From an uncultured Verrucomicrobiota bacterium (GTDB taxonomy: Bacteria > Verrucomicrobiota > Kiritimatiellia > CAIQIC01 > Lenti-01), in assembly GCA_964393515.1 (NCBI GenBank), contig CAYMTY010000006.1:38334-102333 (forward strand): 64,000 bases of DNA, given 5' to 3'. Below, piece after piece: positions 17,475 through 60,670 of this stretch. Below the pieces are notes generated by a model. That model searched no databases and had not been told where the DNA came from. It worked only from the letters and a program-made list of their open reading frames with translations. The position numbers and the translations under genes are program-made. Position 1 is the first letter of the stretch. Every line of letters begins with the position of its first letter.

Positions 17475-20400
17475 TTATAAAAGCCGTAGACAATACAAAA
17501 TCTGGGCCTGCGGAAGCGTGGGCGTGCCGATTCCCCCGTTCCGCTGGATGATGGCGCCGTTCGTGGACTTCAGGACCAGCCACTTGCCGGAGCCGGGGAA
17601 GAAAACCGCCAAATCGGCCTTGCCATCCCCGTCATAGTCCGCCGGCACTGGTACGGGATTCTTCTCCTGCGTGCCGAATCTCGCCGTGCGATTGCCGCCG
17701 GTGCTGTTTGCGATGGTCCACGTGGCGGTCTTGCGGGCGAATACGGCAAGATCCGCCTGGCCGTCGCCGTCGTAATCCGCCGGCACCGGCAGCGCGGCGC
17801 CGCCGCCCAGCGTTTTTTGCACCGGCTGGCCGTCGGACGAGCGCAGAATGTGCCATCGGCCGCCGGCGGTTGCATGCATCGCCAGGTCGGTCCGGCCGTC
17901 GCCGTCGTAATCCGCCGGCACCGGCACCATGCCCGGCAGGCCGAAGGCCACGTGCCATTCGGCCCCGCCGCCGCTGGGCCGAACCTGCCACCGGGAGTTC
18001 GCGCGGTGGTACACGGCGGGATCCCCGATGCCATCGCCGTCGTAATCGCCCGGAACCGGGCACGCCGCGGCCGCTGGCCCCAGCTTCACCACGCGGTCCT
18101 TGCCGCCCGCGGACGGCCGGATATGCCAGTTGCCCGACGACGGCTGGAAGACGGCCAGATCTGTCATCCCATCGCCATCGTAATCCGCGACCGCCGGCAG
18201 CGTCAGGGACGTGCCAAACCGGAGTGCCCGCAGGCCCAGCGAACTGCGCGACTGGAACCAGAACCGGAACTTGAGGCCGTAGCGGGAGAAGTCTGCCAAT
18301 CCGTCGCCGTCGAAATCGTGCAGCTGGCCGAACGGCCCCCGGGGCCACCAGAGCACCTGGTCCAACCAGCCCGCATCAGCGCCCTTGGCGCCACGGCGGT
18401 CCTTGGCGTACTCCCAGCGCAACGTCGCCGCCCCTGGAATCCTCCAGGATTTCCACTGCCAACCGCTTTCGCCGGAAATGGCCGCCTTGGGTGCGCCGTT
18501 GATCCACAGCCGCAGGACATCCTGGTTCGGCTGCGAAGAGGCCTTCCACCAGAAGCTGATCCAGCCCGGACCGGTCATCGTTGTCTCCAGCCAGCTCCGC
18601 TGGCCATGGCCGATGGCCCCGCTCTGCAGCGCTTCCACCCCGTCGTAGGTTGTGTGGGACTGGCTGAACCACGGCGCGCTGCCGCCCGTGGTCCACGTCA
18701 ATCCCGGCGCGTTCAAGGCCGCGTCCCGGTCCGCGCTGTAGGAATGGAACCGGGCCGAGTAGGCCGCACCATCGGCCGGCACCCTGATCGTGCGCGGATT
18801 CTCGAGGCTGCCGTCGCTCCAGCCGGTGAAGGCCCAGCCCGGGTTCGGGGCGGCGGAAATCCGCACCTGCGTTCCCTGATCATAGGTGCCGCCGCCCGCC
18901 ACAGTCCCGCCCGCGGCCGGATCGGCCGTCACTTCCACCACCGCGGTCAACCGCCGGAAGGTTGCCGTGTAGGTCCGGCCGCCGGCCGGCACCATGATCA
19001 TGCGCGGATTGGCCAGTTCGCCGTCGGTCCAGCCGGTGAATTCCCAGTTGGAGGCAGCCTCCGCGGTAAGTTTCACGAGCTCACCCACGCCGCAGGTGCC
19101 CCCGCCAGCGACGGTGCCGCCTTCAGGCGGGTCGGCCGCCACGGAAACCTGCGCCAGCTGCCGCTGGAACAGGGCGGTGTAGGCCATGCCGCCATGGGTG
19201 ACCGTGACCGTCCGCGGATTGCGTGTAACTCCATCGCTCCAGCCTGCGAAATCCCAATGGTTGCTCGTCGTGGCCGTCAAGGTGGCCCGCGCGCCGGAAG
19301 GATAGACGCCGCCGCCGCCGGCCGTGCCGCCTTCCGGCGGCTGGCTGTTCACCGTGAGCACCAGGGCCTGCCGGTCCGTGTTGCCCGCGATCTTCAGGGC
19401 CGGATCGCCGAGCAGGTTGTAGACCGCCAGCGTGTCCCGCGAGATGAATTCGGTTTGCACGGCGCGGCGCGCCTGCAGGATGGCCAGGCCCAGCCGGCCG
19501 CAGCCCTCCTGGAGCACGGCCCGGTAGAACGCCACGCCCAGGTCGCCGGCCGGCGCGTTGCGCGACAGGCCCGACGGACTCCATGCCGCCACCGCCCCGC
19601 CCGTCGCCCGCTGCAGCAGCACCTCGCCGAGGTTGTCCACGCCTGGCATCTCGAACCGCCCCGCCAGGCAGGTCAGGGCCACCGCCACCGGCTTGCGGGC
19701 GTTGGCCATGACATGGACATCCGTGTCCTTCAGCAGGTTCTTGGCGCTCCAGTTCTTGGCGCCGCCATGGCCCGTGAAGTGAACGAAGCCCACGCCGGCC
19801 TTGAACCAGTTGGACAACGACATGCGCGCCGCGGCGATCGCCGTGGTGTCCAGATTGATCCGCGCCGCCAGCGGATGCGCCGTGTCCTTCAGGGCCGCAA
19901 TGCGGTCATTGACCTTCATGAAACTGCCGGCGGCATCGTCCGCGGTGTCGGTGGCCAGCACCAGTTGGTTCTGCCAGTCCGCACCGAACTCGGTCTCGAA
20001 GGCTTTGATTTTCGCGATCATTGCCGCCAGGTCCGCGGCGTTCCGCGCCGGCAGACGCCCAAGGGCCACATCCGGCAGTGCGTCGCCGTCCGCGTCCGCG
20101 AACAGGCCGTCGGCGGCGAAGAGCCCCTCCATCGTCGCCAGCAGCAGCGGCGGCAGATGGTTCACTTCGTTGCTCTTCACCCCGAGGTAGTCGTAGTGGC
20201 CGTTGCCGGCCAGCACCACCATCCACGGAGCCTCGGTCCAGGTTGTTTGGGCATAGGCCAGCAGTTCGGGAATCGCTTCGGGTGTCCGCAGTCCACCCGT
20301 CAGCAGGTCGCAGACATCTTCGAACACCGCCACGCCCGAGCGCAGCCCCTGCCCGGCCCGGTAGTCCGAAAGTTCCTGCGCCGTCTCCGCCAGCGCCCGC

Positions 20401-29231: not shown

Positions 29232-29954
29232 TTATTTCGGCATCGCGTCGCGCAAGGTTTTCATCGCGACTTCGCCCAGGCAGACTTTGTGCGAACTGCC
29301 CCGGAACACGATTTGCTGTCCGGAACAATCGCCCCCGTCGCGCAAGGTCTGGATTTCCGCCAGATTCACGATGGTCGAGCGGTCCAGCGCTTTGAAGGTT
29401 TTTTCCGGCAGGATTTCGCGCCACTCGCGCAGGGGGCGGCTGTGCAGGAATTCCCGGCCGTCGCGGACCAGCACCCGCGTGTAGATGCGCTCGCCCACGA
29501 TCGCCTGGATCTGGCCGACGGGCACCAGATGCCGTTCGTCGCCCAGCTTGAACGACTGCATGTCGTCCGGAGAGAGCCGGCCAGCCTCGGATTTCGCCGC
29601 CGTCGCCAGCCGCGCCCGCAGCCGCGCCACGGCGCGCGCCAGCGTGTCTTGCATCACCGGCTTGAGCAGGTAGTCCGCCGCGTCGATCTCGAACCCTTTG
29701 ACCGCGTAGTGCGGATGGGACGTCGTGATGACCACCTGCGGCCGCCATTTCGCCGCCTCGAGCGCCTTGAAACCCTTCTGGCGGCCCAAATGGATGTCCA
29801 GAAACACCGCGTCCGGCCGTTCCCGGTCGATCAGCGCCGTCGCGGACTCCAGCGAGTCCGCCTCGCCCGCGATTTCCACGTCCGGATGGTCTTCCAGCAG
29901 CGTCTTCAGGTTCAGCCGGTCGATTTCCTCGTCGTCAACGATGATCGCTCTCAT
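29232..29954 (-). CDS. LytTR-family response regulator.
   Basis: Receiver domain MRAIIVDDEEIDRLNLKTLLED...VFLDIHL plus a C-terminal LytTR DNA-binding domain. Confidence 0.85.
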   Translation of the reverse strand: MRAIIVDDEEIDRLNLKTLLEDHPDVEIAGEADSLESATALIDRERPDAVFLDIHLGRQKGFKALEAAKWRPQVVITTSHPHYAVKGFEIDAADYLLKPVMQDTLARAVARLRARLATAAKSEAGRLSPDDMQSFKLGDERHLVPVGQIQAIVGERIYTRVLVRDGREFLHSRPLREWREILPEKTFKALDRSTIVNLAEIQTLRDGGDCSGQQIVFRGSSHKVCLGEVAMKTLRDAMPK

Positions 29955-32778
29955 CCCGCTCTCCCGTTTCGTCCACTTCGTCCCATTCCACCCGGAAGCG
30001 CGCGCCGCCCTCCGGACGGTTCTCCGCGCGCACCCGGCCGCCGAGCAACTGCGCGTTGGTCTGCACCACGTACAGGCCCAGGCCCACGCCGTGATCGAAA
30101 TCCGCCACGGCGGGCACGCCGCGGCTAAAGGCCTCGAAGGTGACCGCCACGTCGTCCGGCAAGCCCGGCCCCTCGTCCGCCACCTCGAACGCGAACCGCC
30201 CCGGTTCCCGCTCGAAGCGCACGTCCACGGCCTTGCCCGCCGGCGTGAACTTGACCGCGTTGTGCACGAGATTGATCAGGATTTGCGCCAGCCGCAGCGG
30301 ATCGCTGCGGAGAGTCCGGCCCGCCAGCGGTTCCGCCGGCCAGCGCAGCGCGACCTGGCGCGCATCCGCGATGGGCTGCAGGATGTCGCGCACGCTCTGC
30401 GCCCAGTCGGCCAGCGCCACCGTGCGCCAATGCACGCGCGGCTGGCCGCCTTCCGTCGCCGACAGGTCCAGCAGATTGGTCAGCATCAGGTTCAGGTGCC
30501 GTCCGCCGGACCGGATCTGCTCCAGCATCCGGAGGAAATCCTCCGGCAACCCGCGCCGCTCGCCCAGGCGGACCATCGCCTGCGACAACCCCACCAGCGC
30601 GCTCAGCGGCGTACGGATTTCGTGGCTCATGTTCGCCAGGAACAGGCCCTTGGCGCGGTTGGCCTGTTCGGCCGCCTCCTTGGCTTGTTCCAGCTCGTCC
30701 TGGCGCGCCCGCAGCGCCTCTTCGATCCGCCGCAGCTCGGTCACGTCCGCGAACGTGCCCCGCAACCGCACCGGCTTGCCCGGCATCCGTTCGCCGCGCG
30801 CGATCGCATGGTGCCACTCTCCGTCAGCCCGGCGGAAATCGACCGGCACGGCGTAGGGTTCGCCGGTGGCCCGGCAGTGGTCCATGGCCGCCTCTAGGTG
30901 CTCGGCGGATTCCGGCGCGCAGAACCGCCTCTGCGCCGCGAACGGCGGCGCCCGACCCGCCGGTTCCAGTCCGAAAATCCGGAAAATTTCCGCCGACCAT
31001 TCGACGACGTCCGCGGCCGGCTCCCATTGCCAGCTGCCTACGTGCGCGATGCGCTGGGCTTCGGCCAAGTCGGCCTCGCGCGCGCGGACGGCCTCTTCCG
31101 CGCGCTTGCGCTCCGTCAGGTCCACGAAGGTCGTCAGCAGCAGGTCGTTCACGGCGGCGACGCTGGCGAGGACGTCGCGCGGCGTGCCGTCCTTGCAGAC
31201 AATCCGGAATTCGCCGCCGGCCATATTGCGCCGGCCCGGATCGGCCGCGACCGTATTCCACCACGCCCGCGCCTGCGCGCGATAGGCCGCGTCCGGATAG
31301 GCCCGCTCGAACCAGTCGTCCAGCGTCCGGATTTCGGCCGGACTATAGCCGAACAGCTGCGTGAACCGGTCGTTGATGAAGACCTCCCCCGCGCCGGAAC
31401 GCGGGGAAAACACGCGCACGGCCGTCGGCATCTTGTCCAGGATACGGCGCAAATCGCGTTCGGCCGAACGGCGGACTTCCGCTTCGCGCGCGTCGCGCGC
31501 GGCCTGCGCCTGCGCCGACTCCTTGTCCGCGCGCAGTTGCCGCACGCGGTCGGCCATCGCCGCCTGGAACAGCGCGAACGCGAAGGCCAAGCCGCCCATC
31601 GTCAGGACGTTCGGCGGCGCGAGGGCCGGCAGCCAGCGCCACATCTGCAAGATCTCGACCGTCACCAAAACCCAGAACGCGGCCCACGCCGACAGATAGA
31701 ACCGCGCCGTGCGGTTGCCCCGGCGCCAGGCCGCCGCCGCGATGCCCATCACGACCGCGCCGGCCAGCAGATCCACGGCCTGCACCGCGACCAGGCGCGG
31801 CCGATACGCCCCGAATGCCGCCCAGACGGCCAGCGCCGCGCAAGCCGCCGCCCCCCCCCGCAGGAGTTTGTCCGTTCGCGGAAAGGTCGTGCGCAGCTCG
31901 AAAAACCAGCGCGCATAACCCAGCAGCCCCAGCACGCCCAGCGCGTTGAAGACCAGCGTGCCGTTCGTGGTGCCGAACCGCCACCCCGGCCAGCCCAGAT
32001 GCCGCCAATAGCCCGTCAGCCCCAGGAAATAGAGGCCCATCGCCGCGATGGTCGCCGCATAGATCAGATAGCCCCGGTCGCGCGCGGACAGCGCGAAGAT
32101 GAACCCCGTCGCGGCCAAGGTGGCGAACGCACCGAAGCAAAACAGGAAAAACAACCCGTCGTGGTCCACCTGCGCGGCAAAGGACTCGGGAGAAAAGACC
32201 GCCAGCGGAATCCGCACCTGCATCGGCGTCCGCACGCGCAGGAAAACCTCCGCGGTTTCGTCCGGCGCCAAATCGATGGCCAGGGCCGGATACAGCCCGA
32301 AGACCGTGCCCCGCCCGCGCTGAAAGCGGTTGCCGCCGGCCGCATGTTCCGCCGGTCCGTTCATCCGCACCACGTGCCAGTCGATTTCCTCGAAGCGCAC
32401 GTGCCGCAGCCCCACGAACCACTTCGCCGTCGCGGGCCGCGCCGACCGCAGCGCGAACCGCACCCAGACCGCGTCGTCGGTGAAGCCCAGGCGGACCGGG
32501 TCCTCCCGGGCCGGCGCGAAACGCCCTTCCGCCGCCGCCGCTTGCGCCTCGGCCAGCGTCAGTTGCCCGCTTGGATCGCGCAAAATCCCCAGGTGCGGCG
32601 CCAGCCGCACCTGTTCCGTCTCCGGCGCCAGCACCGCCGGCGCCTGCGCGGGCGCGGACCATCCCCTCGCCAGCAACCCCGCCAAGAACACCGTCTGGAG
32701 AACCCGCCTCACCCCCGGAATGGTGCCCCATCCCCGGGCCCATGGCAAGCCCATCTCAGCCCCAACGGTTTCCAGCAT
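29935..32778 (-). CDS. Sensor histidine kinase with an N-terminal 7TMR-DISM (extracellular DISMED2 plus 7TM) module, PAS, HisKA and HATPase domains.
   Basis: Signal peptide, a roughly 200-aa extracellular domain, seven TM helices, PAS (TAVRVFSPRSGAGEVFINDRF), H-box MSHEIRTPLSAL and G-box GVGLGLYVV. Confidence 0.8.
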   Translation of the reverse strand: MLETVGAEMGLPWARGWGTIPGVRRVLQTVFLAGLLARGWSAPAQAPAVLAPETEQVRLAPHLGILRDPSGQLTLAEAQAAAAEGRFAPAREDPVRLGFTDDAVWVRFALRSARPATAKWFVGLRHVRFEEIDWHVVRMNGPAEHAAGGNRFQRGRGTVFGLYPALAIDLAPDETAEVFLRVRTPMQVRIPLAVFSPESFAAQVDHDGLFFLFCFGAFATLAATGFIFALSARDRGYLIYAATIAAMGLYFLGLTGYWRHLGWPGWRFGTTNGTLVFNALGVLGLLGYARWFFELRTTFPRTDKLLRGGAAACAALAVWAAFGAYRPRLVAVQAVDLLAGAVVMGIAAAAWRRGNRTARFYLSAWAAFWVLVTVEILQMWRWLPALAPPNVLTMGGLAFAFALFQAAMADRVRQLRADKESAQAQAARDAREAEVRRSAERDLRRILDKMPTAVRVFSPRSGAGEVFINDRFTQLFGYSPAEIRTLDDWFERAYPDAAYRAQARAWWNTVAADPGRRNMAGGEFRIVCKDGTPRDVLASVAAVNDLLLTTFVDLTERKRAEEAVRAREADLAEAQRIAHVGSWQWEPAADVVEWSAEIFRIFGLEPAGRAPPFAAQRRFCAPESAEHLEAAMDHCRATGEPYAVPVDFRRADGEWHHAIARGERMPGKPVRLRGTFADVTELRRIEEALRARQDELEQAKEAAEQANRAKGLFLANMSHEIRTPLSALVGLSQAMVRLGERRGLPEDFLRMLEQIRSGGRHLNLMLTNLLDLSATEGGQPRVHWRTVALADWAQSVRDILQPIADARQVALRWPAEPLAGRTLRSDPLRLAQILINLVHNAVKFTPAGKAVDVRFEREPGRFAFEVADEGPGLPDDVAVTFEAFSRGVPAVADFDHGVGLGLYVVQTNAQLLGGRVRAENRPEGGARFRVEWDEVDETGERDESDHR

Positions 32779-35800: not shown

Positions 35801-38800
35801 GGCTCGGCCAGGCCGCCATACGTGATATTCACAGTCAGGCCCGTCGGCGTGGTGGTGGCCGTCGCGCTCTTCGGCACGCCATCATAGGTCTGCTCCAGGT
35901 CGCTCAACTGCACCGTTGCCGCCGCCTTGGACCACGGGGTTCCATACACCTCCCATTCCGCCAGCCGCACCACGGATTCCGCGGAGTTGGACAAACCGGC
36001 AAACCGCAGGTAGCGGGCAACTCCACCGCCCAGCCACTCGTCCCAGCCAAGGTGGTCCTCTTGGCTGGCATCCGCCACCAGCAACCAGTTTTGGCCATCG
36101 CGCGAACCGTCAATGCGGTACCGTTGCGGGCGGTTTGTCCAGGCGGGATTCAACACCCAGATGCGCGCCAAGGTCACGGTCGTCTGCAAGTCCAGCGTCA
36201 ATGTCCCGGGCGGCGCGGCGGTCCAAATGGTCGCGGCCCCGTTGACGCCTGAGGTATGCACACCATCAATGGCCTGCAGCGCGTTGGACGCCTGGACGCC
36301 GGTGATCGTGGCGCCCCCCGCGGCCAGCGCCAGGTTTGAACCGGCATCGTCATCCAAAGTGGTTGTGGCAAAATACACATCCGAGAGATTGGAGCCCGAA
36401 ACCCGGAAGATCGCGGCTTCGTTGACCCCGTTGGTGTCGGCGGTGGCCTCCAGCGTCACCACCTGGTATACGTTCCAGTTCCAAGGCCGGAAGGTCAGGG
36501 TCGCCCCGCTCTTGACGGTCAGGTTCGTACTGCCCGCGACACGGGTCACGCTGATCGTCAGGTTTCCGGAGCTGCGCAGCCGGACATGGAGCCGGCCCTC
36601 GCCGGCCTCCCGCACCAGCAAGGCCTGCGCGCTCAATTCGGGAGTGGGCTTGTTATAGGCCACCTGGCAGGAGCGGACGACGGGGTCCGCCGCCTCCCAG
36701 TATGCGGATCCGGCCTGCGTGGCCACGATGGAAACCGTCCCGGTTCCGAGAAACCACAGGTTGGTCTCCTCCACAATGACGCCCGGGCCCGATTCCACTG
36801 CAAAGGACACCGGCAGGCCGCTGGAGGCTGTCGCCGCCAGCCGCACCACGTTGGTCGCCCATTGGTCGGCCAGCGGCGGAAAATCGATCGTCTGAGATCC
36901 TTTCACGACCACCAGCGTGCCGGCCGCCACGCCCTCCCAGTTGACATCGTTCACCGTGCCCGTCACGGCGTACGTGCCGGGAACCACCGGCGCCTGTCCG
37001 CTGCCGTCGTAGGTGAAATTCACGGCCAAGCCACCCGGGTCGGTCGTGGCCGTAGCCATCCGGGGGGTGCCGTCATAGGCCTGGAACAGATTTTGGAGCG
37101 TCACTGTTGCGGCGGCCTTCGCCACCACCAGCGTCCCCGTCGCCCCACCTTCGTAATTGACCTCATCCACCGCGGCCGTCACGGCGTAGTTGCCCGCGTT
37201 GACCGGCGCGGTCGGCGATCCATTGTAGGTCACCGTGATCGTCAATCCGGTTGGCGCGGTCGTGGCATTCGCGCTCCGCGGCGTGCCGTCATAGATCTGC
37301 GCCAGGCCGTCCAGGACTACGCCGGCCGCGGCCTTGGCCACCACCAGCGTGCCCGTCGCGGCCCCATACCAGTTGGGATCCACGAGGGTGGCCACCACTT
37401 CGTAGGCACCGGCCGCCACCGGCGCACCGGGCAGCCCGTTGTAGGTGAGCGCCACGGCCAAGCCGGCGGGGACCGTCGTGGCCCAGGCGGATTTCGGCAT
37501 GCCGTCGTAGGTCTGCGCCAATCCGTCCAGGTTCACCGTGGCCGGTCCCGGGGCCACCACCAGCGTGCCCGTGGCCGTACCCTGGTGAAAGGCCGTCGCC
37601 ACCGTGGCGGTCACGGCATAGGTGCCGGCCTGGATCGGCGCGGCCACCTGGCCGTCGTAGGTGAACCGGACGGTCAGGCCGGCCGGCAGGGTCGTGGCGG
37701 TCACGGTGCGGCACGCGCCGTCGCACACCTGCTCGAGGTCCTGCAGGAACACCTGGGCCGGCACGGGCTCCGCATTGGTCGGATCGTTTCCCGCCAGCCG
37801 CAGCGCCGGGTCGCCCAGGAGATTGTAGGTGGCGAATGTCGGCCAGGTGAACATGTTGCCCGGCAGCGCCCGCCGCGCCAGCAAGGTGGCCCGGCCCAGC
37901 GGGCCGGCCTGCTCCTGCAGCATCGTCTGGTAGATTTTCGCGCCCAAATCCGTGGCCGGGGAATTGAGCGGCATCGCGGAGGAAGCGAACACCGTCACCG
38001 CGCCGCCTTGCGGGCGCTGCAGGAGCGCTTCGGCCACGCAATTCACCGCCGGGGCATCGAAATAGCCCGCCAGGCAGCAGAGTGCCACCACGACCGGCGT
38101 GCGGCTGTTGGTCAGTGTTCCGATGTCCGTTGTGGTCAGCAGCCCCTGCGTGGCCAGCTTGGTGCTGGTGCCATGCCCGCTGTAACTGACCATGCCCGCC
38201 CCCGCATCGAAGGCGGAAAAGAGTGCGGCGCGCGCGGGGGTGATGGCCGTCGTATCCAGGTCGATGCGGGTGGACACGACCCAGGGCTCCTGGACCAGAT
38301 TCGTAAACACCGCGACCGATGCGGCAAAATTGCCGGCGGCATCCGCCTTGTCGTTCGCAAAACCCAGCTGGTTCTGCCAGGCGGCGCCGTTGTCCGCTTC
38401 GTAGGCCTGGATCTTCGCGATCATCGCGGCCAGGTCCGCCGCATCGCGTGCGGGCAGCCGGCCCACCGCCACGTCCGGCAGGTCATCGCCGCCGGCGTCC
38501 GCCAGCAGTTCGTCGGAGGAAAACAGCCCGTCGTAGGTCTGGCGCAGAATGGGTGGCAGGTGGTTGGCCTCGAACCCCATGCTGTCGAGGATGTCGTAAT
38601 GGCCGTCGCCCGCCAGCACCATCATTTGCGGGGATTCCGCCCAGGTCGTCGCCGCCCGGCGCACCAGGGCGGGGATCGCTTCCGGCGTGCGCAGCCCGCC
38701 CGCCAACAGGTCGCAGAGGTCCTCGAACACGGCCACGCCCGTACGCAGGCCCTGCCCTGCGCGGTAGTCCGCCAGCGCCTGCGCGGTCGGCTCCAGGGCG

Positions 38801-40305
38801 CGCGACGTGACGACCAGATAATCCACGCGGTTGGTCTCCGCGAGGAACCAGGCATCGGCCGCCGCCGGCACCGGCGCCAGCAGCGGAATCTCATCCGCCT
38901 CGGCCACGGCATAGCGCGCGTCGCCCGCCGCCACCGTCCACGCCTTCCCCGTCAGCGATCCGTCGGCCTCCGCGATCCAGGTCGGCTGGCCGGCCGCATC
39001 CAGCGCCAGCGCCACTGGCGCGGTGAACGCCGCGGCCGAAACCGCGGCGGCGCCGTCCGGCTCGACCAGGACCGTGCCGGCGCCCGGCGCCAACTCCCGA
39101 TTGTATTCCGCGGTGACTCCGTCCACCACGAAGTAGCTGTACTGGCTGGCATTGGTCAGCACGCCGCGGACGGTCAGAGTGTTGGCTCCATTGGAGGCCA
39201 CGCCCGCCGGAATGGCCAGAACCGCCGTGGCCGCATACTGATCATCGAATGAATTGGTGCCCACCAGGGTGCCGTTCAAACTGTATTCGGCGCGGTGATC
39301 CGGATTGCGGGTGGTTCTCGTCCAGCCCTGGACATCCACCCGCAGGGTCAGGGCGCCGTCGTTGTACCCCGGCAGCCCCAGGGCGAAATCCACGCGGTTC
39401 GACGCTGGATTGGTGGTGCTGATGACCGCATTCCAATAATAATAGTCCGCGGGGCGCTGCTCGGCGGCATTGAAGGGAAAAACATCCTGTTCGCAGCGCA
39501 CCTGCGCGGGCAGGCGGGTTTCACCGGCGGTTGCACCTGGCGCGCGCCGCGGCAGCGGGCAGCCGGCGCCGGCCCGGATCAGATAGGCCCCCGCAGGCGC
39601 ATACCAGTTGGTGGCCGGCCGGCCGAAAAACACCAGTCGGCCGCGGACCGCGTCATAGCGGAGGGGCACGGGCGCGCCCTGGCAGGTGATGGCCAGGCCG
39701 TCCGCCGCTGCCAGCCCCTGCACCGCGGCAAGTTCCAGGCCCATGCCGGTGGCGAGATCGGCCAGACTCACGCCGTAAAGCCCCTCCGCGCCCACCAGGA
39801 CTTTCAGCACGGACGAAGTTCCGGCTCCCGCGGCTTTGGCCCCGCTTGTGCGCGCCGCCGGTTTCACCGGCCGCACGCTTTCCTCCGGCGGCGGAGCGAA
39901 GACAACGGCATGCACGCCCAGGTCGCGCACACCGCCGGCCACTTCCACTTCCTCCAACCGGTAGGAGCCGCTGCCCCCGGCCACCGCGGCGGGGTCTGCC
40001 AGCTCATAGGTGGCTGCGGGCGCGTGGAACGCCACGGGCACCACGGATTCGCACAGACAAATTTCCGCGCCCGATTCCGGATCCAGACGAAAAACCCGAA
40101 AACCCGCGGTGCCCCAGGCCGAAGCCGTTTTCCAGGCCACTGAACCAACCCCGTCCCGCCATACACCCCACACCTCCGCCACATCCGCCCGGCCGGGCGG
40201 CCCGCCCCGCGCCTCCAGCCCGCCCGCCCCCCAGGCCCAAACAACGACGCCCAGCAAACGCCAGAAAAGAAGCGCTCCCGCCCGCCTCTGTGCCGCTGTA
40301 ATCAT
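32842..40305 (-). CDS. Giant secreted multi-domain protein 2 (about 2487 aa). N-terminal shared clan-CD peptidase-like module, then MBG-type repeats and four Ig-like plus F5/8 discoidin units.
   Basis: Start probably MITAAQRRAGALLFWRLLGVVVWAWG at 40305 (the track begins at an upstream TTG). The His/Cys pair is YSGHGTSTKL ... VALCCLAGYFD. MBG-like TYDGxxxxxTATTxPxGLxVxxTYNG repeats. Discoidin region TSWTNEPPGYMLLDLQ...RYVKFTGLSNSANESVLICELEVYG. Confidence 0.8.
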   Translation of the reverse strand: MITAAQRRAGALLFWRLLGVVVWAWGAGGLEARGGPPGRADVAEVWGVWRDGVGSVAWKTASAWGTAGFRVFRLDPESGAEICLCESVVPVAFHAPAATYELADPAAVAGGSGSYRLEEVEVAGGVRDLGVHAVVFAPPPEESVRPVKPAARTSGAKAAGAGTSSVLKVLVGAEGLYGVSLADLATGMGLELAAVQGLAAADGLAITCQGAPVPLRYDAVRGRLVFFGRPATNWYAPAGAYLIRAGAGCPLPRRAPGATAGETRLPAQVRCEQDVFPFNAAEQRPADYYYWNAVISTTNPASNRVDFALGLPGYNDGALTLRVDVQGWTRTTRNPDHRAEYSLNGTLVGTNSFDDQYAATAVLAIPAGVASNGANTLTVRGVLTNASQYSYFVVDGVTAEYNRELAPGAGTVLVEPDGAAAVSAAAFTAPVALALDAAGQPTWIAEADGSLTGKAWTVAAGDARYAVAEADEIPLLAPVPAAADAWFLAETNRVDYLVVTSRALEPTAQALADYRAGQGLRTGVAVFEDLCDLLAGGLRTPEAIPALVRRAATTWAESPQMMVLAGDGHYDILDSMGFEANHLPPILRQTYDGLFSSDELLADAGGDDLPDVAVGRLPARDAADLAAMIAKIQAYEADNGAAWQNQLGFANDKADAAGNFAASVAVFTNLVQEPWVVSTRIDLDTTAITPARAALFSAFDAGAGMVSYSGHGTSTKLATQGLLTTTDIGTLTNSRTPVVVALCCLAGYFDAPAVNCVAEALLQRPQGGAVTVFASSAMPLNSPATDLGAKIYQTMLQEQAGPLGRATLLARRALPGNMFTWPTFATYNLLGDPALRLAGNDPTNAEPVPAQVFLQDLEQVCDGACRTVTATTLPAGLTVRFTYDGQVAAPIQAGTYAVTATVATAFHQGTATGTLVVAPGPATVNLDGLAQTYDGMPKSAWATTVPAGLAVALTYNGLPGAPVAAGAYEVVATLVDPNWYGAATGTLVVAKAAAGVVLDGLAQIYDGTPRSANATTAPTGLTITVTYNGSPTAPVNAGNYAVTAAVDEVNYEGGATGTLVVAKAAATVTLQNLFQAYDGTPRMATATTDPGGLAVNFTYDGSGQAPVVPGTYAVTGTVNDVNWEGVAAGTLVVVKGSQTIDFPPLADQWATNVVRLAATASSGLPVSFAVESGPGVIVEETNLWFLGTGTVSIVATQAGSAYWEAADPVVRSCQVAYNKPTPELSAQALLVREAGEGRLHVRLRSSGNLTISVTRVAGSTNLTVKSGATLTFRPWNWNVYQVVTLEATADTNGVNEAAIFRVSGSNLSDVYFATTTLDDDAGSNLALAAGGATITGVQASNALQAIDGVHTSGVNGAATIWTAAPPGTLTLDLQTTVTLARIWVLNPAWTNRPQRYRIDGSRDGQNWLLVADASQEDHLGWDEWLGGGVARYLRFAGLSNSAESVVRLAEWEVYGTPWSKAAATVQLSDLEQTYDGVPKSATATTTPTGLTVNITYGGLAEPPVAAGSYAVVAAVDDANYEGSATGLLVVAQASQTIDFPNPGTQISTAQVVLAATASSGLPVTYAVAAGPAVLADALLSFTGTGTVSVTASQAGTGNWEPAEPIVRTFEVLSPAPAPPQILFSKAEVLVREDGTDRVYLRLDMAPAEPVVFTVAWSGGDTNIAVSAGGTRIFNAANWDTWQAVVLTAPADENAASETATIRVSAPGWADQYLTARTLDDDLAENLALAMGGTTITGYKASRPEQVIDGIHGTSANYGHTSWTNEPPGTMTLNFNGLATVSQVRLRNWDWTYRVHRYRLESSLNGADWTLLADASGEDRQGWDDWAVSNQPMRYLKFTGLSNSANESVLLCELEVYGERTLVPLPQAVFSKTNIHVREDGSDRVYLRLDMAPLGPVVFTVAWSGGDTNIAVSAGGTRVFNPTNWDTWQAVVLTAPADENAASETATIRVSAAGRDDQYLTVRTLDDDLSENLALAAGGATITGFKASRPDLVIDGVHGTSANYGHTSWTNEPPGYMLLDLQCTASVSRVRLRNWDWTYRVHRYRLESSANGTDWTLLADASGEDHQGWDDWAVSNPALRYVKFTGLSNSANESVVICELEVYETPPVPQVLFSKAEVLVREDGTDRVYLRLDMAPAEPVVFTVAWSDGDTNIAVSAGGTRIFNAANWDTWQAVVLTAPADENAASETATIRVSAAGRDDQYLTVRTLDDDLSENLALAAGGATITGFKASRPDLVIDGVHGTSANYGHTSWTNEPPGYMLLDLQCTASVSRVRLRNWDWTYRVHRYRLESSANGTDWTLLADASGEDHQGWDDWAVSNPALRYVKFTGLSNSANESVLICELEVYGERPAPPPARRAVRPRAAASGAGAVPEPFPLTVVTSTDSPEHTNGWTAVDQDADTAWEGPAGAGGGYIAVGYDALLHMTNLVVELAEGSATNLQILVSREGVVWDAWPEGAEPVAVRYVWLLFADEGAEAPAPRVIEIRPEL
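33250..35445. repeat. Three tandem 729-bp (243-codon) near-identical coding repeats inside giant gene 2. A fourth diverged copy lies at about 36.1-36.85 kb.
   Basis: Identical 84-aa antisense ORFs recur at a 729-bp offset (33333..33587 and 34062..34316). The forward-frame ORFs 33454..34164 and 34183..34665 share more than 120 identical residues. Each unit encodes an Ig-like plus discoidin pair. Confidence 0.75.
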
Positions 40306-40339
40306 GACTTCATCTCTCACGCCCCGCCGGCGCAAGCCT

Positions 40340-40984: not shown

Positions 40985-43194
<2,210 letters not shown>

Positions 43195-43198
<4 letters not shown>

Positions 43199-43575
43199 AA
43201 CTCCGCATCCTGATGATCGAAGACAACGAGCAGAACCGCTATCTGGAAATGTATTTGCTCAAAAGCCGCGGCCACGAGGTGCAGGCCGCCGATGACGGGC
43301 CCGCCGGCCTGGAACGGGCCGCCGCCGAACGGCCCGACATCATCCTGCTCGACATCCAGCTGCCCGGCATGGACGGCTACGCGGTTGCCCGCGCCCTCCG
43401 CCAAATGCCCGGCCTGGCCGGCGTGCCCATCGTGGCCGTTACCTCCTATGCCATGCCCGGCGACCGCGAAAAGGCGCTGGCGGCCGGCTGCTCCGGCTAT
43501 CTCGAAAAACCCATCGATCCGGACACCTTTGTCGCCGACATCGAACGCCACCTGCCCCGGGGAACCAACGCATGA
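43195..43575 (+). CDS. Single-domain CheY-like response regulator.
   Basis: MKLRILMIEDNEQNRYLEMYLL...DIILLDIQLPGMDGY...GYLEKP. The ATGA start overlaps the kinase stop. Confidence 0.85.
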
Positions 43576-47674: not shown

Positions 47675-47717
47675 AGGCCGCGCTTGCCTTGCCGCCAGGC
47701 GGCCGCTAGGCTTGTCC
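47675..47717 (+). promoter_or_regulatory. Second copy of the leaderless-type promoter motif, upstream of SBP-HK2.
   Basis: CAGGCCGCGCTTGCCTtgccgccaggcggccgcTAGGCTtgtccATG has the same -35 hexamer, the same 17-nt spacer and the same 5-nt gap to the ATG as the copy at 40941. Confidence 0.3.
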
Positions 47718-50713: not shown

Positions 50714-53700
50714 TTATCTCCGCACCGCCAAGATTCCAACGAAGAGGCGCCGGGCATCCGGCCGGAAGATTCGAGTGTGCACGGTCTCCATCACCCCATC
50801 CGGATCCGGCGTCGCCCCGAGTTCCTGCAGGTCCGTGGAGCCGGGCTCCCAGGTCCGCAGATCTTCCGAAACGTAGAGGCGGTATTCGACATCGCTGCGC
50901 TGGATGCGGCGCCGCCAGCGCACCACAAACCCGGAATCCTCCCCATCCGCCTCGCCGGCGGCCGGTTCGACCGCGAGGACACCGTCGCCGGCCAGGGCGT
51001 AGGCAAAGAAGTTGCCGGCCGTCGGCCCGCTGATCTGCGGGTCGGCCAGTTCGGCCGGGGTGAACCGCTGCCAGCGCCACGTGGCGAAACCGGCATCCGC
51101 CGGCTGTCCGGACTGGTTGCCGGCGAGGCGCAGGGCGGGATCGCCAAGCAGGTTGTAGACGGCGAGCGTGTCTTGCGAGAAGACACTGTTTTGCACGGCG
51201 CGTTGCGCCTGCCGGATGGCCAGGCCCAGCGTGCCACAGCCCTCCTGGAACACGGCCCGGTAGAAAGCGGCCGCCAGGTCAACGGCGGGCGCATTGCGCG
51301 AGGCCCCGGACGGGCTCCAGACCGCCACCGCCCCGCCCTGCGCCCGCAGCAGCAGCGCTTCCCCGAGGTTCTGCACGGCCGGCATCTCGTAGCGTCCGGC
51401 AAAGCAGGTCAACGCAATCACCACCGGCTGCTGGCTGTTCACCATGGTCTGGACATCCGTGTCCTTCAACAGGTTCTTGGCGCTCCAGTTCTTGGCGCCG
51501 CCATGCCCCGTGTAGTGGATGAAGCCCGCGCCGTTCTTGAACCAGTTCAACAGCGTTGCCCGGCCTGCGGCGATGGCCATCTTGTTCAAATTGATCCGTT
51601 CCGGAACGGCCCGCGGCGGACGGGTCAGATCGGCCAGCCGTTCGCTGTCCGCGGCAAACGATCCGGCCGCCGGATCATCCGTGTCGTTGGCCAGCACAAA
51701 GTTGTCCTGCCACGCCGCGCCAAACTCGACCTCGAAAGCCCGGATCTTCTCGATCATTGCCGCCAGGTCGGCGGCGTTCCGCGCCGGCAGGCGCCCGACC
51801 GCGGCATCCGGGAGCCCGTCGCCATCCGTGTCCGCCAGCAGGCCGTCGGCCGCAAAGAGGCCGTCCTTTGTCGGCAGCAGCAGCGGCGGCAGGTGATTGA
51901 CCTCGTTGCTCTTCACCCCGAGATAGTCGTAGTGCCCGTTGCCCGCCAGCACCACCAGCCACGGCGCTTCGGCCCAGGTCGCTTGCGCATAGGCCAGCAG
52001 TTCGGGAATTGCCTCCGGCGTCCGCAGCCCGCCGGTCAGCAGGTCGCAGGCGTCTTCGAACACCGCCACGCCGGCCCGCAGCCCCTGGCCGGCCCGATAG
52101 TCCGCCAGCGCCTGTGCCGTCTCCGCCAGCGCCCGCGAGGAAACAATCAGGTAATCGATCCGGTTGTCCGCCGCGAGGAACCACGCGTCCGCCGCCGCCG
52201 GCTCGGGCACCAGCAGCGGCAGTTCTGCGGATTCCACCACGGCGAACCGTTCGTTTTCCCCGGCCGCCGCCCAGGCCTTTCCGGGCAGGGTACCGGTTTC
52301 GTCCGCGATCCAGGCCGGCCCACCGGAGTCCTCCAGCGCCACGGCCAGCGGCGCGGCATACGGCGCCGCCGAAACGCCGGCCGCCCCGCCCGCCCGGAAA
52401 TGGAGCGTCCCCGCCCCGGGCTCCAGCCGCCGGGCGTACGCCGCGGTGAATCCGTCCACCACGAAATTGCCGTACAGCCCGGTCGTCGGCAATGCCCCCC
52501 GCACCGTCAGCGTGTTGGCACCTTCCACCGCCACACCTTCCGGAAGCTCCAGCACCGCCTGCGCCGCCCGCTGGTCGTCGAACTCGAGCGAACCCGCAGC
52601 GACGCCGTTCACAAAGAACTCCGCCCGGTGATCCGGGATCCGATCCGTCCGCGTCCAGCCCAGCAGATCCACCGTCAGCGTCACGGGTCCGCCCGCAAAG
52701 CCTGTCAGGTCGAACGCAAAGTCCACCCGGTTTGCAGCCGGGTTCACCGACGCCGTCACCATCTTCCAGTAATACCAATCCGCTGGCCGTTCGAGCATCG
52801 TCGCGTTGCCGGTCGCCAGATCCTCCTCGAAGCGCACCTGCGCCGGGAAGACGGTTTCGGCCCCGGCCGCGCCCGGCTCCCGCCGCGCCATGGCCAAACC
52901 TTCGCCGCCTTCAATCAGGATCGCATTGTCCCGCGCGTACCAGTTGTCCGTGGGCCGCCCGTGAAACACCATGCGGCTGTTGACTGCATCGTAAACCACC
53001 GGCACCGCCGCGCCCTGCTCTGTGAAGGCCAGTTGGTTGGCCTCCGCTAGCGCCTGCACATCTTCAAGCGCCAGTCCCAGGCCGGCGGCAATGGCCTGCA
53101 GCGCCACGCCATAGAGGCCTTCCCGTTGGAAGAGGACCTTCAGCACCGGCGACGGCCCGGCCCGTTTCAAGGGGCGGACATCCACCGGAACCGCTTTCGC
53201 CGCCGGCGCGGCCTTCGGGGCGGGCGGAGGAACGACAAACCGGATTTCGTGCGTCCCGTGGTCCACTGTTCCGCCCGTCAGTTCCGCCTCTTCCAGCCGA
53301 TAGAAGCCGGTTGTGCCCGTTTCCGCCCCCGGGACGGCCAAGGCGTATTCTGCACTGTCCTCGCACATCGCCGCCAGCACCCAGTCTTCGTTCAGCCGGG
53401 TCTCCGCCCCCGTCTCCGGATCCACGCGGTACACTCGGAAGCCCGCCGTGTCCCATTCCGATGCCGTCCGCCAGGCCACAAAGCCGGCGTCTCCGCGCCA
53501 TTCGCCCCACACGTCGACCAGTTCGGCCCGGGTGGCTCCCAGGGGGGCCAGCCCCAGATCCAGCGTCAGGTTTGTTTGGCTGCCGGACAGGACGAAGTTG
53601 GTTGTCCAGGCATAGCCGCCGATGCCGCCGGCCGTCGCATCGCTGTCCAGAGCGGGATCCCCGCTTGCCAAGGCGGGCGCCAGGACCACATAGTTGGTAT

Positions 53701-59700: not shown

Positions 59701-60670
59701 CGAGCCCGCCGTACGCGCTGCCGGTCGACGTGTTGGTCGGGAACGCGGCGCTGTTGGCCACGTTCGTCCAGTCCGCGCCGCTGGTGCTCACGTCGTTCCC
59801 CGCCAGGGAGTAGCCGTAGATGTAGTCGTTGGTCTGCAGGCCCAGATCCTGCCAGGTCACGTACACGCCCGACAACGCCTGCGGCGTGATGACCGCGGAG
59901 GGATGCAGGTCGTCGCCGCCTTCGGTGTAGCCCCGCATCACCGTCGTGTCGATCGAAATCCCCGAATTGCCCCACTGCGTTTCGAGCACGCTGACCGGAT
60001 CCCCGAACGCCGTCGGCCGGTTGCTGGCGTCCACCGCCAGGATCGCCGCGATCTTGAACCGGTCGTTGCCCCCGCGGTCCATGACCAGAAACCCGCGCTG
60101 GTCGATGTTGTTGAACACCGGAAACCCATCCGGGAAAATATAATCGATGCGCTCGATGTTGTTGTTGTTGCCGTTGCCGTCGCCCGAGTTGGCGAAGACG
60201 TTGTCCGCGCCGCGGTTCACGATGGACCCTCGCAAGGATTCCATCATCGTTTCCGCAAAATCCGGCCGCAGCGCGACGTTCGTCCCCGTCACCGCATAGT
60301 CTTCGTAGAGCACGATGTGGAGGCGGCCCGTCGCATTCACGTTGTCCACGCGCTCGAGGTTGATGATGTCCGCCAGCAGCACGAAGTTGAAGCTCTCCCC
60401 CCCGATCTCGAAGCCGGTCAGGCGCAGGTTGTTCTGGCTGCCCTCGCCGAACGTGACGCGGTAGGTTGTTCCCACCGGGAAATCCGCGCTGCCACCGCCC
60501 GTCGTCGCATAGTTGTCGTTCGTCTGCGTCGAATCGTCGTACGCCGCCAGCAGGCCCGAAATCGCCTCCAGCCCGTAGGCCGCCGGGCCGCCCGCCCACG
60601 CCAGCAGTAACAGGCCGCTCAGAACCGCGCACCGTTTCCCGAACCGGGATTGGAACGTCCGGCTCTTCAT
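50714..60670 (-). CDS. Giant secreted multi-domain surface protein 3 (about 3318 aa). About ten or more DUF11-type repeats, SdrD-B-like domains, a glycine-rich module and the shared C-terminal clan-CD peptidase-like module.
   Basis: Start taken at MKSRTFQSRFGKRCAVLSGLLLLAWAGGPAAYG (60670). DUF11-like units of the form DLAVLKTVDPT...NNGP...TN.A. Glycine-rich block WGGGGGGGRETG...GRVTVAYD. The His/Cys pair is YTGHGGAKNWSA ... IALTCFAGRYE. Confidence 0.8.
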   Translation of the reverse strand: MKSRTFQSRFGKRCAVLSGLLLLAWAGGPAAYGLEAISGLLAAYDDSTQTNDNYATTGGGSADFPVGTTYRVTFGEGSQNNLRLTGFEIGGESFNFVLLADIINLERVDNVNATGRLHIVLYEDYAVTGTNVALRPDFAETMMESLRGSIVNRGADNVFANSGDGNGNNNNIERIDYIFPDGFPVFNNIDQRGFLVMDRGGNDRFKIAAILAVDASNRPTAFGDPVSVLETQWGNSGISIDTTVMRGYTEGGDDLHPSAVITPQALSGVYVTWQDLGLQTNDYIYGYSLAGNDVSTSGADWTNVANSAAFPTNTSTGSAYGGLDLISGGMMFFEESLDVTLGNFVWDDRDGDGLQDSEEPGLANVLVEVYDSDTNLATVTRTDGNGQWLAEGIGPGTFFVDFTLPAGGYQFTLRQVGADAAIDSDPDPATGLTDLIALASGETNLTIDAGMHLAPGDLRLGKSVLPTDAKKGDPVVYTLNLTNAGAVNVSLVQVTDVLPPAVAFVGYGATTGTYSEATGIWDIGNLAVGAVGTLTITGTVNAGYGGLTITNDAAITRMNRPDTNETDNSASATFAIQQTDLAVLKTVDPTNSEEGVSVEFTIALANNGPHDAAGIAVTDLLPAGFSYGGAVASQGSYASGTGIWTVGAVTNGGSASLAITATPLAGTGGTTLTNTAAITASSHDDPVVTNNAASAELPVLGADLGLGKRADPAAASEGQAIVFTIAITNFGPAAVTGVAVSDPPMAGATYVSNAVSQGSYDGGTGAWTVGALAADAVATLAIYATVDAATAGTVLTNTATITASSLPDPDSANDVDSATVAVSTLRLDKTSDVSGSVQPGGTITYTMIVTNYGATAHTNVSLADVVPDGTTYVPDSVAVTRFPESPPVPTTTVYDASTTFTAPAGVTSVTVSAWGGGGGGGRETGRRSTGGGGAGGAFAMVSNLVVVPGSNYAVTVGAGGAGGSAAGGINGLPGGASWFGAVDVVYAEGGAGGVGTAVQNANGAGGTGSAAASIGDVVYRGGNGAQGNTGASGAGGGGAGSTGAGGDASVGTGGTGTSLYGGDGADGVGDGSDGAAGSAFGGGGSGGNASNNDDHDGGDGAGGRVTVAYDLPTAKPVGTEDDPPNLAEGWWLDPGQALEVTFQVVVDDPLALMAITNVASATSEIQTIPLTDTVVDPFIPVDLGVGKVADAAWVGETEAVKFTVTVTNLSSGVEATGVELADLLPAGFNYVSNTASQGSYASGTGLWTVGSLGPLATATLEIYSAAAVGSGGLVWTNAAAVAALDQTDLNSANDVAEAVVGVYGSDLAILKTVDNATPNEGAALLYSIVVSNRGPSDTTGVAVSEPLTNGVTYVSNAVSQGSYDGGSGLWTVGDLDAGDSATLWIAATVDAGTKGASITNWSRITATDMPDPVAANDQDSAVVYVSALIVTKTSDVAGYAVPGSNVVYTMIVSNSGASTHSNLVVTDLAPSGTTYVADSLEVTGPNWTTINVRDEFNAQAYTNNDGSLDWNADWQEGDPAGTAGPVGDYVGVTAGGQLFLHWAYVGDEWASRGADLSGYDSAVLRYDWQTVNLAGGQTVSVLVSTNGAAPFVEVGTYSGSASGSAEIDVTAFMSTNTTVRFENQSVNWDNGDYGYFDNVELEAMAFTTNTVSGGGPPVLATNRSLRPGEVLTLTFEVAVDNPCGATQIVNTVSVTSDQTSTNVTATVADPVAYTDLALVKTADETHPAEGDRVTYAITVTNKGPIAATGLQVAEPLTNGLIYVSAVPSQGTYDDGTGLWDVGTLAVGAVAILTLSADVEAGTAGTAITNLSRISALDQADPTPGDNQDVAVVAVEGVDVGVGKSVDPIVPVEKEQLVYTVSVTNFGPDAATGVEVTDLLPVGLTYVSAVPSQGSYNDATGLWDVGTLAASQVETLAITALVNTNTAGTALTNVAARTATDQIDTNAANDSAEVVVDPTQAPLDIFKSVDPSGTVGSGDSLTYTIVVTNHSAQTQTGVDVTDVLPAGLAYVPGSIAATAPVATNATILDSFNARNYGNNNGTTNWSANWVESEGDGPAAGNVQVLFDTVRGATFTLRFAGAGQTLARQADLSGKSGATLSFDYRRDGLEAGEYVAVQMSSNGTAGTFTEIGRFNGAATDVAYSEFSYDIGAWISTATVVRFVSPAGMDATDVLWIDDVQIETERRVQAAVPGGAPPNLVSGLMLMPGESATLTFAATVNAPAVVTQLVNSASVTSDQMTNPRTDTAENPVDPDWAAVGDRVWLDVNGNGVQNSTETNGVADIPVALMDTNGMVVAAQMTSAAGLYFFENLVPGTYYLRFDLSNLDTNYVVLAPALASGDPALDSDATAGGIGGYAWTTNFVLSGSQTNLTLDLGLAPLGATRAELVDVWGEWRGDAGFVAWRTASEWDTAGFRVYRVDPETGAETRLNEDWVLAAMCEDSAEYALAVPGAETGTTGFYRLEEAELTGGTVDHGTHEIRFVVPPPAPKAAPAAKAVPVDVRPLKRAGPSPVLKVLFQREGLYGVALQAIAAGLGLALEDVQALAEANQLAFTEQGAAVPVVYDAVNSRMVFHGRPTDNWYARDNAILIEGGEGLAMARREPGAAGAETVFPAQVRFEEDLATGNATMLERPADWYYWKMVTASVNPAANRVDFAFDLTGFAGGPVTLTVDLLGWTRTDRIPDHRAEFFVNGVAAGSLEFDDQRAAQAVLELPEGVAVEGANTLTVRGALPTTGLYGNFVVDGFTAAYARRLEPGAGTLHFRAGGAAGVSAAPYAAPLAVALEDSGGPAWIADETGTLPGKAWAAAGENERFAVVESAELPLLVPEPAAADAWFLAADNRIDYLIVSSRALAETAQALADYRAGQGLRAGVAVFEDACDLLTGGLRTPEAIPELLAYAQATWAEAPWLVVLAGNGHYDYLGVKSNEVNHLPPLLLPTKDGLFAADGLLADTDGDGLPDAAVGRLPARNAADLAAMIEKIRAFEVEFGAAWQDNFVLANDTDDPAAGSFAADSERLADLTRPPRAVPERINLNKMAIAAGRATLLNWFKNGAGFIHYTGHGGAKNWSAKNLLKDTDVQTMVNSQQPVVIALTCFAGRYEMPAVQNLGEALLLRAQGGAVAVWSPSGASRNAPAVDLAAAFYRAVFQEGCGTLGLAIRQAQRAVQNSVFSQDTLAVYNLLGDPALRLAGNQSGQPADAGFATWRWQRFTPAELADPQISGPTAGNFFAYALAGDGVLAVEPAAGEADGEDSGFVVRWRRRIQRSDVEYRLYVSEDLRTWEPGSTDLQELGATPDPDGVMETVHTRIFRPDARRLFVGILAVRR

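Follow-up and report, generated by a model that had tools for sequence, protein, structure and literature searches.

What kind of domain is shared by three neighbouring giant genes of an uncultured verrucomicrobial bacterium, and what would it do there? The locus lies on contig CAYMTY010000006.1 (assembly GCA_964393515.1, class Kiritimatiellia), of which a stretch of 64,000 nucleotides (nt), hereafter the window, was analysed; all coordinates refer to it. An earlier note, made from the letters alone, had described three paralogous giant proteins sharing a module that ends in a gingipain-like His/Cys domain. Here, we report that this module belongs to peptidase family C25 and that its whole architecture is that of PorU, the sortase-like enzyme of the T9SS, or type IX secretion system. 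The giants are probably Sec-exported, adhesin-like proteins carrying a PorU-type C25 module, the partner of which would likely be a peptide modified by a radical S-adenosylmethionine (SAM) enzyme, the giant protein itself, or both.

The three genes are very long open reading frames (ORFs) on the minus strand, encoding 3852 (G1), 2497 (G2), and 3342 (G3) amino acids (aa), and the G+C content of their codon positions follows the pattern of real genes in a window with a G+C content of about 67%. In each of them, a plausible Sec signal peptide follows an internal ATG (at 29015, 40305, and 60670, respectively), which results in the following genes:

17475..29015 (ORF 17475-29033), minus strand: G1, giant secreted protein of about 3846 aa
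32842..40305 (ORF 32842-40335), minus strand: G2, giant secreted protein of about 2487 aa
50714..60670 (ORF 50714-60742), minus strand: G3, giant secreted protein of about 3318 aa

The region common to the three proteins is a collinear module of about 810 aa. In BLASTP comparisons, residues 45-850 of G2 match residues 2410-3218 of G1 and 2405-3209 of G3 with 55-56% identity over about 812 aa (E = 0), and residues 2202-3222 of G1 match 2189-3213 of G3 with 71% identity in an alignment of 1032 aa (E = 0). The additional 200 aa or so upstream of the module are common to G1 and G3 only, so that the length of roughly 1000 aa first given to the module applies to this pair and has to be reduced to about 810 aa for the family of three. 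A tblastn search of the window returned exactly three copies, which, together with the three minus-strand ORFs and the BLASTP matches, confirms the three giant paralogs with a shared module. Their positions, with those of the catalytic residues, are:

19380..21806, minus strand: module of G1 (aa 2410-3218), His codon 19767-19769, Cys codon 19668-19670
20418-21806, minus strand: PorU-like accessory half of the G1 module
19380-20417, minus strand: Peptidase_C25 catalytic half of the G1 module
37786..40203, minus strand: module of G2 (aa 45-850), His codon 38173-38175, Cys codon 38074-38076
51104..53530, minus strand: module of G3 (aa 2405-3213), His codon 51503-51505, Cys codon 51404-51406

All copies contain the blocks (A/V)(E/D)VWGxW, TAGFxV(Y/F)R, VLKVL, EGLYGV(S/A)L, NRxDYL(V/I)V, GHG, and AL(T/C)C(L/F)AG. 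The conserved blocks quoted in the earlier note are therefore all present, with the correction that the first one reads VDVWGEW in G3 instead of AEVWG, and its statement that the His-Gly pair and the Cys are kept in every copy holds for G1, G2, and G3.

To which family does this module belong, and how far does the relationship extend along it? The Pfam profile PF01364 (Peptidase_C25) matches G1, G2, and G3 over its entire length (positions 1-374 of 374, E-values from 4e-61 to 8e-65), with scores of 203.5, 220, and 207.7 bits, respectively, against a gathering cut-off of 23. The GHG and (T/C)C motifs align with His211 and Cys244 of the gingipain RgpB, as well as with the dyad of PorU. The module is thus a bona fide member of family C25 (clan CD), with a complete catalytic domain and an intact His/Cys dyad, and the proposed clan-CD assignment stands. 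The suggestion that the family might be undescribed does not, since it is a curated Pfam family, NCBI automatically gives its close relatives the name 'C25 family cysteine peptidase [Kiritimatiellia bacterium]', and neither a new fold nor a new clan is involved.

The relationship includes the half of the module that lacks Pfam annotation. The AlphaFold2 model of the G2 module, with a predicted local distance difference test score (pLDDT) of 86.6, shows a catalytic domain with the gingipain-type fold, where strands 676-681 and 709-714 precede His682 and Cys715, and, taken as a whole, the PorU-like fold, consisting of a multidomain N-terminal region followed by the C25 domain. Structure prediction, proposed in the earlier note as a check, therefore agrees with the peptidase family, and the whole 810 aa have the architecture of a solved protein. 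The accessory half is made of four beta-rich domains: an FN3-like sandwich, a small alpha/beta domain, a jelly roll resembling carbohydrate-binding modules (CBM), and a further beta domain. Neither this half nor three distant N-terminal halves matched any meaningful Pfam family at E <= 10, and its approximately 460 conserved residues are currently without any Pfam model. A profile built from 20 phylogenetically spread catalytic halves found PorU with an E-value of 6e-41, RgpB with 7e-27, and Kgp with 3e-17, and its invariant residues include the AAD, GRxP, and LLGDPAL motifs, all of them common to PorU. In this alignment, based on sequence profiles and not on structures, the column of the S1 residue Asp163 of RgpB, whose acidic counterpart in Kgp is Asp516, contains Ser, Ala, or variable residues.

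The likeness to PorU thus encompasses the whole multidomain architecture together with the C25 domain and its dyad. Nevertheless, the two differ in several aspects. PorU is a stand-alone enzyme of 1158 aa, has a T9SS C-terminal domain, resides in Bacteroidota, and has PorV, PorQ, and PorZ as partners; the module, in contrast, is fused to adhesin-like proteins of 900-4600 aa, is accompanied by no detectable T9SS C-terminal domain in G1-G3, resides in a Kiritimatiellia-type host, with relatives in Acidobacteriota, Desulfobacterota, Nitrospirota, Actinomycetes, and other phyla, and has a radical SAM peptide cassette as its neighbour. To our knowledge, PorU has so far been found only as part of the T9SS of Bacteroidota, and we know of no T9SS in the phyla of these relatives. 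The gingipains RgpB and Kgp (PDB 4IEF, 1CVR, 4RBM) are further away: in addition to an Asp163 equivalent that appears not to be conserved in the profile alignment and to accessory domains that are PorU-like, Pfam detected neither the gingipain propeptide PF08126 nor the haemagglutinin domain Cleaved_Adhesin in G1, G2, or G3, and the propeptide was present only in the distant relative P0042.

Outside the module, the giants resemble adhesins. G1 starts with its signal peptide and an IgGFc_binding-like head of about 540 aa, followed by a stalk of DUF11/CLIPPER, DUF7507, Gly_rich_2, and SdrD_B domains, the module, and then three InlB B-repeats and FG-GAP repeats. In G2, the module comes immediately after the signal peptide and is followed by MBG repeats and four F5/8-type-C (discoidin) domains, whereas G3 carries a stalk of ten DUF11/CLIPPER domains plus SdrD_B, DUF7507, and Gly_rich_2, the module, and a tail of 129 aa. 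The module is therefore N-terminal in G2 and near-C-terminal in G3, as had been noted, but internal rather than C-terminal in G1, because 634 aa (the InlB-type and FG-GAP repeats) come after it. The domains that make up the stalks of G1 and G3 are also those of giant CLIPPER/SdrD-B repeat adhesins. Such adhesins normally terminate in LPXTG or another sorting signal; G1 and G3 carry the protease module instead. In agreement with the earlier note, the NCBIfam models for the T9SS C-terminal domain, PEP-CTERM, and LPXTG found no match in G1-G3 at E <= 0.01. DUF11 received the name CLIPPER in a survey (PMC12617251) devoted to intramolecular isopeptide bonds.

How widespread is this unit, and is its dyad maintained? 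Scanning one genome per GTDB species, with an alignment of nine module sequences as the query, revealed at least 421 relatives of the module, and 76 loci were kept for comparison. Among these loci, the full module (query residues 20-803, approximately) occurs in Kiritimatiellia, Victivallales/Lentisphaerae, Planctomycetota, Thermoanaerobaculia and other Acidobacteriota, Desulfobacterota, Nitrospirota, Actinomycetes, and Aminicenantes. The unit occurs in this PVC-group genome and in at least seven further phyla other than Bacteroidota, lacking a T9SS C-terminal domain. The profile of the N-terminal half alone matched 3085 of 1.84 billion cluster representatives at E <= 1e-3 (1107 at E <= 1e-10), in proteins of up to 4646 aa. 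The catalytic His is kept in 71 of 72 and the Cys in all 72 genome-derived modules, which cover at least eight phyla. We infer that the module is active as a site-specific cysteine endopeptidase or transpeptidase.

What the substrate might be is suggested by the genes that follow G1. They form a compact cassette:

17138..17458, minus strand: PqqD-family peptide chaperone of 106 aa, a recognition element for RiPPs (peptides made by the ribosome and modified after translation), PF05402
16056..17141, minus strand: radical SAM enzyme of 361 aa, PF04055 (E 3.6e-26)
15883..16059, minus strand: precursor-like peptide of 58 aa, MKPEPDNIQTPDELTVRRPYAKPEIKRVDLALAETLGEGCKMTEPCPIEEPGFFEPGS, matching no NCBIfam model
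14987..15886, minus strand: protein of 299 aa like ScmC and HprK-related kinases, PF27840
14445..14882, plus strand: S24/S26 signal-peptidase-I-like protein of 145 aa, kept in Kiritimatiellia loci only

Between the stop codon of G1 and the start of the PqqD gene lie 16 nt, and the successive PqqD, radical SAM, peptide, and ScmC genes (14987-17458) overlap by 4 nt each. As judged from this spacing, G1 heads what is predicted to be a translationally coupled operon, consisting of the giant, PqqD, the radical SAM enzyme, the 58-aa peptide, and the ScmC/HprK-like protein, and continuing with polysaccharide export genes. Genes called independently on an identical Logan contig have the same order, namely PqqD (PF05402), Radical_SAM, 58-aa product, and ScmC (PF27840), followed by the S24-like peptidase on the opposite strand, FecR-like, BBP2_2, Poly_export, and Wzc-like genes.

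The PqqD protein has, besides PF05402, a weak match to the NCBIfam model lasso_PqqD. Among 51 homologs of the radical SAM enzyme, the cysteines of the CX3CX2C motif (C56, C60, C63) are conserved at 100%, and C278, C296, C339, and C342 at 84-100%; the latter four indicate a putative single auxiliary cluster of the SPASM/twitch-like type. The best NCBIfam similarities of this enzyme are with AhbD, NirJ, MftC, PqqE, and ScmE/F, all of them far below the cut-offs. The 58-aa peptide combines a conserved leader with a GCK motif and two Cys and terminates in Gly-Ser; it belongs to a family of 44 peptides traced with hidden Markov models, which are about 55-65 aa long, contain two or three Cys, and share the leader (R/K)(R/K)xYxKPx(I/L)xx(I/V)(D/E)LxxxE(T/V)LxxGCK. 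The C-terminal Gly-Ser is present in 35 of them, being replaced by Ser-Ser in Acidobacteriota; the Kiritimatiellia precursors end in (E/D)(G/A)GS and nearly all others in xGS. No NCBIfam model matched the three peptides of this family that were searched.

The components of the G1 operon are of the same kinds as those of the SynChlorMet (Scm) systems, the HprK-related-kinase/PqqD/radical-SAM systems, and the lasso-peptide systems with HPr-kinase-like proteins. None of the ScmC, ScmD, ScmE, or ScmF equivalog models identified a member here (ScmC scored 30.7 against a cut-off of 125, and ScmE 75 against 400), all scores being far below the thresholds; the sole match is to the wider ScmC family of Pfam, PF27840. 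The HPr-kinase-like kinases of lasso peptides phosphorylate a C-terminal Ser, and the 58-aa peptide ends in Ser. We know of no such system that has been linked to a C25 peptidase.

Is the association of this cassette with the C25 giants more than a local coincidence? In an all-against-all clustering of the ORFs of the 76 loci and the window, the radical SAM cluster (window ORF 16056-17198) was found in 49 loci, mostly 200-1000 nt past the module and on the same strand; the cluster of the gene of about 315 aa (window ORF 14987-15943) came next, in 31 loci, and a PqqD-like ORF of about 95-106 aa lay between the giant and the radical SAM genes, PqqD and the precursor family occurring in about 44 loci. 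When only the 59 loci with at least 2.5 kb after the giant gene were considered, the radical SAM gene was downstream in 35, including 24 of the 29 outside Kiritimatiellia. The relationship also holds in the reverse direction: all three radical SAM homologs located on long contigs have a C25 giant (3303-4267 aa) directly upstream, within the same locus of about 13 genes. Moreover, of 80 metagenome loci selected by a ScmC-like profile only, 23 contained the radical SAM gene and at least 2.5 kb upstream, and 21 of these carry a C25 module, 17 of them directly upstream and four at 4-6 kb downstream, with two having none. A different arrangement was seen in seven Acidobacteriota loci (L047, L053, L054, L056, L060, L069, L072), where the precursor (...CPQGPISS) directly follows the giant, the radical SAM gene lies on the other strand, and a ScmC/HprK-like gene was not detected.

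Taken together, these observations point to the following mechanism. The stalk of each giant would be formed by Ig-like domains of the isopeptide-bond type (DUF11/CLIPPER, SdrD-B, MBG), with lectin-like ends. The Cys of the module would attack one particular peptide bond of a dedicated substrate, giving a thioester intermediate that would be resolved either by water, as in a site-specific endopeptidase, or by an amine, as in PorU, which would make the module a transpeptidase. Since the G1 gene heads the cassette operon, the radical-SAM-modified peptide would be the most likely dedicated partner, as substrate or acceptor, with the giant protein itself as a further or additional candidate. PorU cleaves between T/E/D/N and G/A/S, and transfers the acyl intermediate onto the amine carried by an anionic lipopolysaccharide (A-LPS) seryl-sugar, or onto short peptides and free amines (PMC10202324); the (E/D)(G/A)GS and xGS ends of the precursors would fit a PorU-like P1' preference. 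A more specific version would make this a T9SS-independent, PorU-like sortase system with a wide distribution outside Bacteroidota. The C25 module would recognise the radical-SAM-crosslinked, possibly phosphorylated peptide and cleave it before the C-terminal Gly-Ser, which in Kiritimatiellia, with the cut between (E/D) and (G/A)GS, fits the PorU rule, and the peptide, or the adhesin via the peptide, would be ligated to an amine on the exported polysaccharide or the cell surface, the crosslinked peptide serving as a linker or anchor and not as an antibiotic. We regard this version as improbable in its full detail.

Several results weigh against a PorU-type activity directed at the cassette peptide. 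NCBIfam NF033707 (PorU) gives the three modules 128.1, 135.4, and 139.9 bits, compared with an equivalog cut-off of 420, and the T9SS partners PorV, PorZ, and PorQ are not found within the window; being below this cut-off, without a detected T9SS C-terminal domain and without such partners in the window, the module is not itself a PorU. The spatial adjacency of His and Cys derives from superposition and alignment with RgpB and PorU, not from a measured distance. The metagenomic G2-type relatives P0003, P0004, and P0006 have Gly, Ser, or Asp in place of the Cys, and P0004 also Tyr in place of the His; catalysis would therefore be dispensable in part of the family. Within Kiritimatiellia, where the paralogs have multiplied, only 11 of 30 loci have the cassette radical SAM gene, and G2 and G3 have no cassette of their own. 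Finally, synteny shows coupling but not its direction, and the peptide could be substrate, acceptor, regulator, or merely co-regulated.

Other readings of the module have to account for the same data. It could be a gingipain-like degradative protease, that is, a broad extracellular endopeptidase mounted on adhesin and lectin domains for nutrition, comparable to the RgpA/Kgp haemagglutinin-adhesin complexes. We consider this unlikely, given a sequence profile nearer to PorU than to the gingipains, a PorU-like accessory half, the absence of detectable PF08126 and Cleaved_Adhesin, and a column aligned with Asp163 of RgpB that is not a conserved acidic one in the profile alignment; it would also leave unexplained why, across phyla, the module shares a tight operon with peptide-maturation genes. 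Alternatively, the module could act in cis, cutting its own polypeptide once to free or mature the stalk, like the cysteine protease domain (CPD) of MARTX and large clostridial toxins, with no other substrate. Clan CD does include self-cleaving domains, and the module is the last domain in most phyla. PorU-type enzymes, too, act on C-terminal segments (PMC10202324). Even so, self-processing as the sole function seems distinctly improbable, as the module is N-terminal in the clade of G2 and internal in G1, yet equally conserved, no conserved cleavage motif was identified at its boundaries, and the cassette would again be left without explanation.

The opposite possibility is that the module does not catalyse at all and represents a scaffold for binding, folding, or anchoring, in which the His and Cys are vestigial. 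The CBM-like jelly roll in the N-terminal half and the substitutions in P0003, P0004, and P0006 speak for it, and these three proteins do look like pseudo-protease members of the clade with the module first, as far as their residues indicate. Extending this to the whole family is very hard to reconcile with a dyad kept in all three copies of the window and, beyond it, with only one His and no Cys lost among the 72 modules mentioned above, nor with the invariance of AAD, GRxP, and LLGDPAL, so that we give this explanation hardly any weight. The PorU-type module with a dedicated partner therefore remains our preferred reading.

If the module is a mobile unit, as its different positions had suggested, how did it come to lie where it does? 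Outside Kiritimatiellia, it forms the end of the protein, with only 1-24 aa after ...YNLLGDPAL(R/K)x, and is preceded by 500-2400 aa of DUF11, SdrD_B, cadherin-like, LTD, and even subtilase domains. Within Kiritimatiellia, what comes after the module is either a conserved tail of about 137-144 aa, the arrangement found in G3, or a longer extension. Together with five other genomes (L001, L002, L003, L012, L061), G2 forms a monophyletic clade that has the module first. The shuffling of positions is hence real, but mostly a lineage-level feature. There is also a sign of more recent movement. G3 and L017 share 88.5% identity in their heads, and G1 and L010 share 74%, whereas the modules of G3 and G1 are only 59% and 58% identical to those of the same head-orthologs, respectively; the G1 and G3 modules share 76.6% identity with each other and are sisters in a neighbour-joining tree. 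These identities and the distance tree imply that the module, with about 200 aa upstream, was exchanged or homogenised between paralogs within the lineage, and suggest gene conversion or module replacement within this genome (19368-22430 and 51104-54178). The idea of a movable module thus gains support, as far as a distance tree and identities can provide it.

The head of G1 adds to this history. It is common to the cassette-linked giants of Nitrospirota, Actinomycetes, Desulfobacterota, and Verrucomicrobiota, and G1 would therefore be the local ortholog of an ancestral cassette-linked gene, G2 and G3 being apparently Kiritimatiellia-specific paralogs without their own cassette. This head, homologous to proteins containing PF17517 (IgGFc_binding), was also considered as a feature specific to C25 giants, which was rejected: homologs of 450-900 aa with PF17517 and DUF11 exist without C25. 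At the other end, the tail of G3 is the following:

50717-51103, minus strand: tail of G3 (aa 3214-3342), 129 aa

Tails of this type, of about 130-145 aa, follow the module in more than 20 Kiritimatiellia giants and are absent outside the class. No meaningful Pfam family was found for the G3 tail at E <= 10, and it is a candidate for an anchoring or sorting domain specific to this lineage. Within the coding sequence of G3, ARAGORN called a 95-nt tRNA-Pro(GGG) (57413-57507, minus strand), probably a spurious call within a coding sequence rich in G+C.

The remaining genes of the window are mainly of two kinds, those past the cassette and those between the giants:

12505-14406, minus strand: FecR-like, with a C-terminal domain that by eye resembles a glycoside hydrolase
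11213-12508, minus strand: BBP2/EpsL-like outer-membrane barrel
10490-11143, minus strand: Wza-like Poly_export
7846-9996, minus strand: Wzc-like tyrosine kinase
29935..32778, minus strand: sensor histidine kinase with 7TMR-DISM/PAS, between G2 and G1
40796-43198, plus strand: sensor histidine kinase with SBP_bac_3 and GAF
43292-44242, plus strand: ORF of 316 aa, uncertain gene, with no Pfam or NCBIfam match
44723-47278, plus strand: sensor histidine kinase with PAS
47712-50513, plus strand: sensor histidine kinase with SBP_bac_3 and three PAS domains

Further downstream of the Wzc-like gene there are Wzy_C, ABC-2, Wzt-like ABC, GT2, pyruvyl transferase, and MurB-like genes, so that positions 296-14406 (minus strand), on the same strand as the cassette and past it, are predicted to constitute a locus for making and exporting a polysaccharide. 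Its synteny extends to other Kiritimatiellia (L080-L082), and a Wzc-like gene is near the module in 13 loci of several phyla. No response regulator was seen adjoining the four sensor kinases between the giants. The 7TMR-DISM kinase was considered as a partner of G2 and rejected, as it is also located directly upstream of a G1-type giant in L020 and L004, which ties it to the G1-type gene.

What, then, is new in this locus, and what does it mean? Both the protease family and its fold are known, and relatives are automatically annotated. In the literature searched, which was covered in part, three features appear to be undescribed: a PorU-like whole-module architecture outside phyla with a T9SS, the fusion of this module to giant adhesins as their terminal unit, and its operon, nearly obligate, with a cassette of PqqD, radical SAM, Gly-Ser-terminated peptide, and ScmC-like genes. 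Searches combining Kiritimatiellia with C25, C25 with SPASM/PqqD, and C25 with radical SAM and RiPP returned nothing relevant, which at this partial coverage is weak evidence. The ancient unit that has been fused to giant surface proteins across phyla is the whole multidomain core of PorU, beyond the C25 fold alone. If its coupling to the cassette is functional, it would provide an evolutionary context for PorU outside the T9SS, define a new ribosomal peptide family (with a GCK motif, two or three Cys, and a C-terminal Gly-Ser), possibly with a structural or anchoring function instead of an antimicrobial one, and offer a testable hypothesis on how giant adhesins are attached in uncultured diderm lineages.

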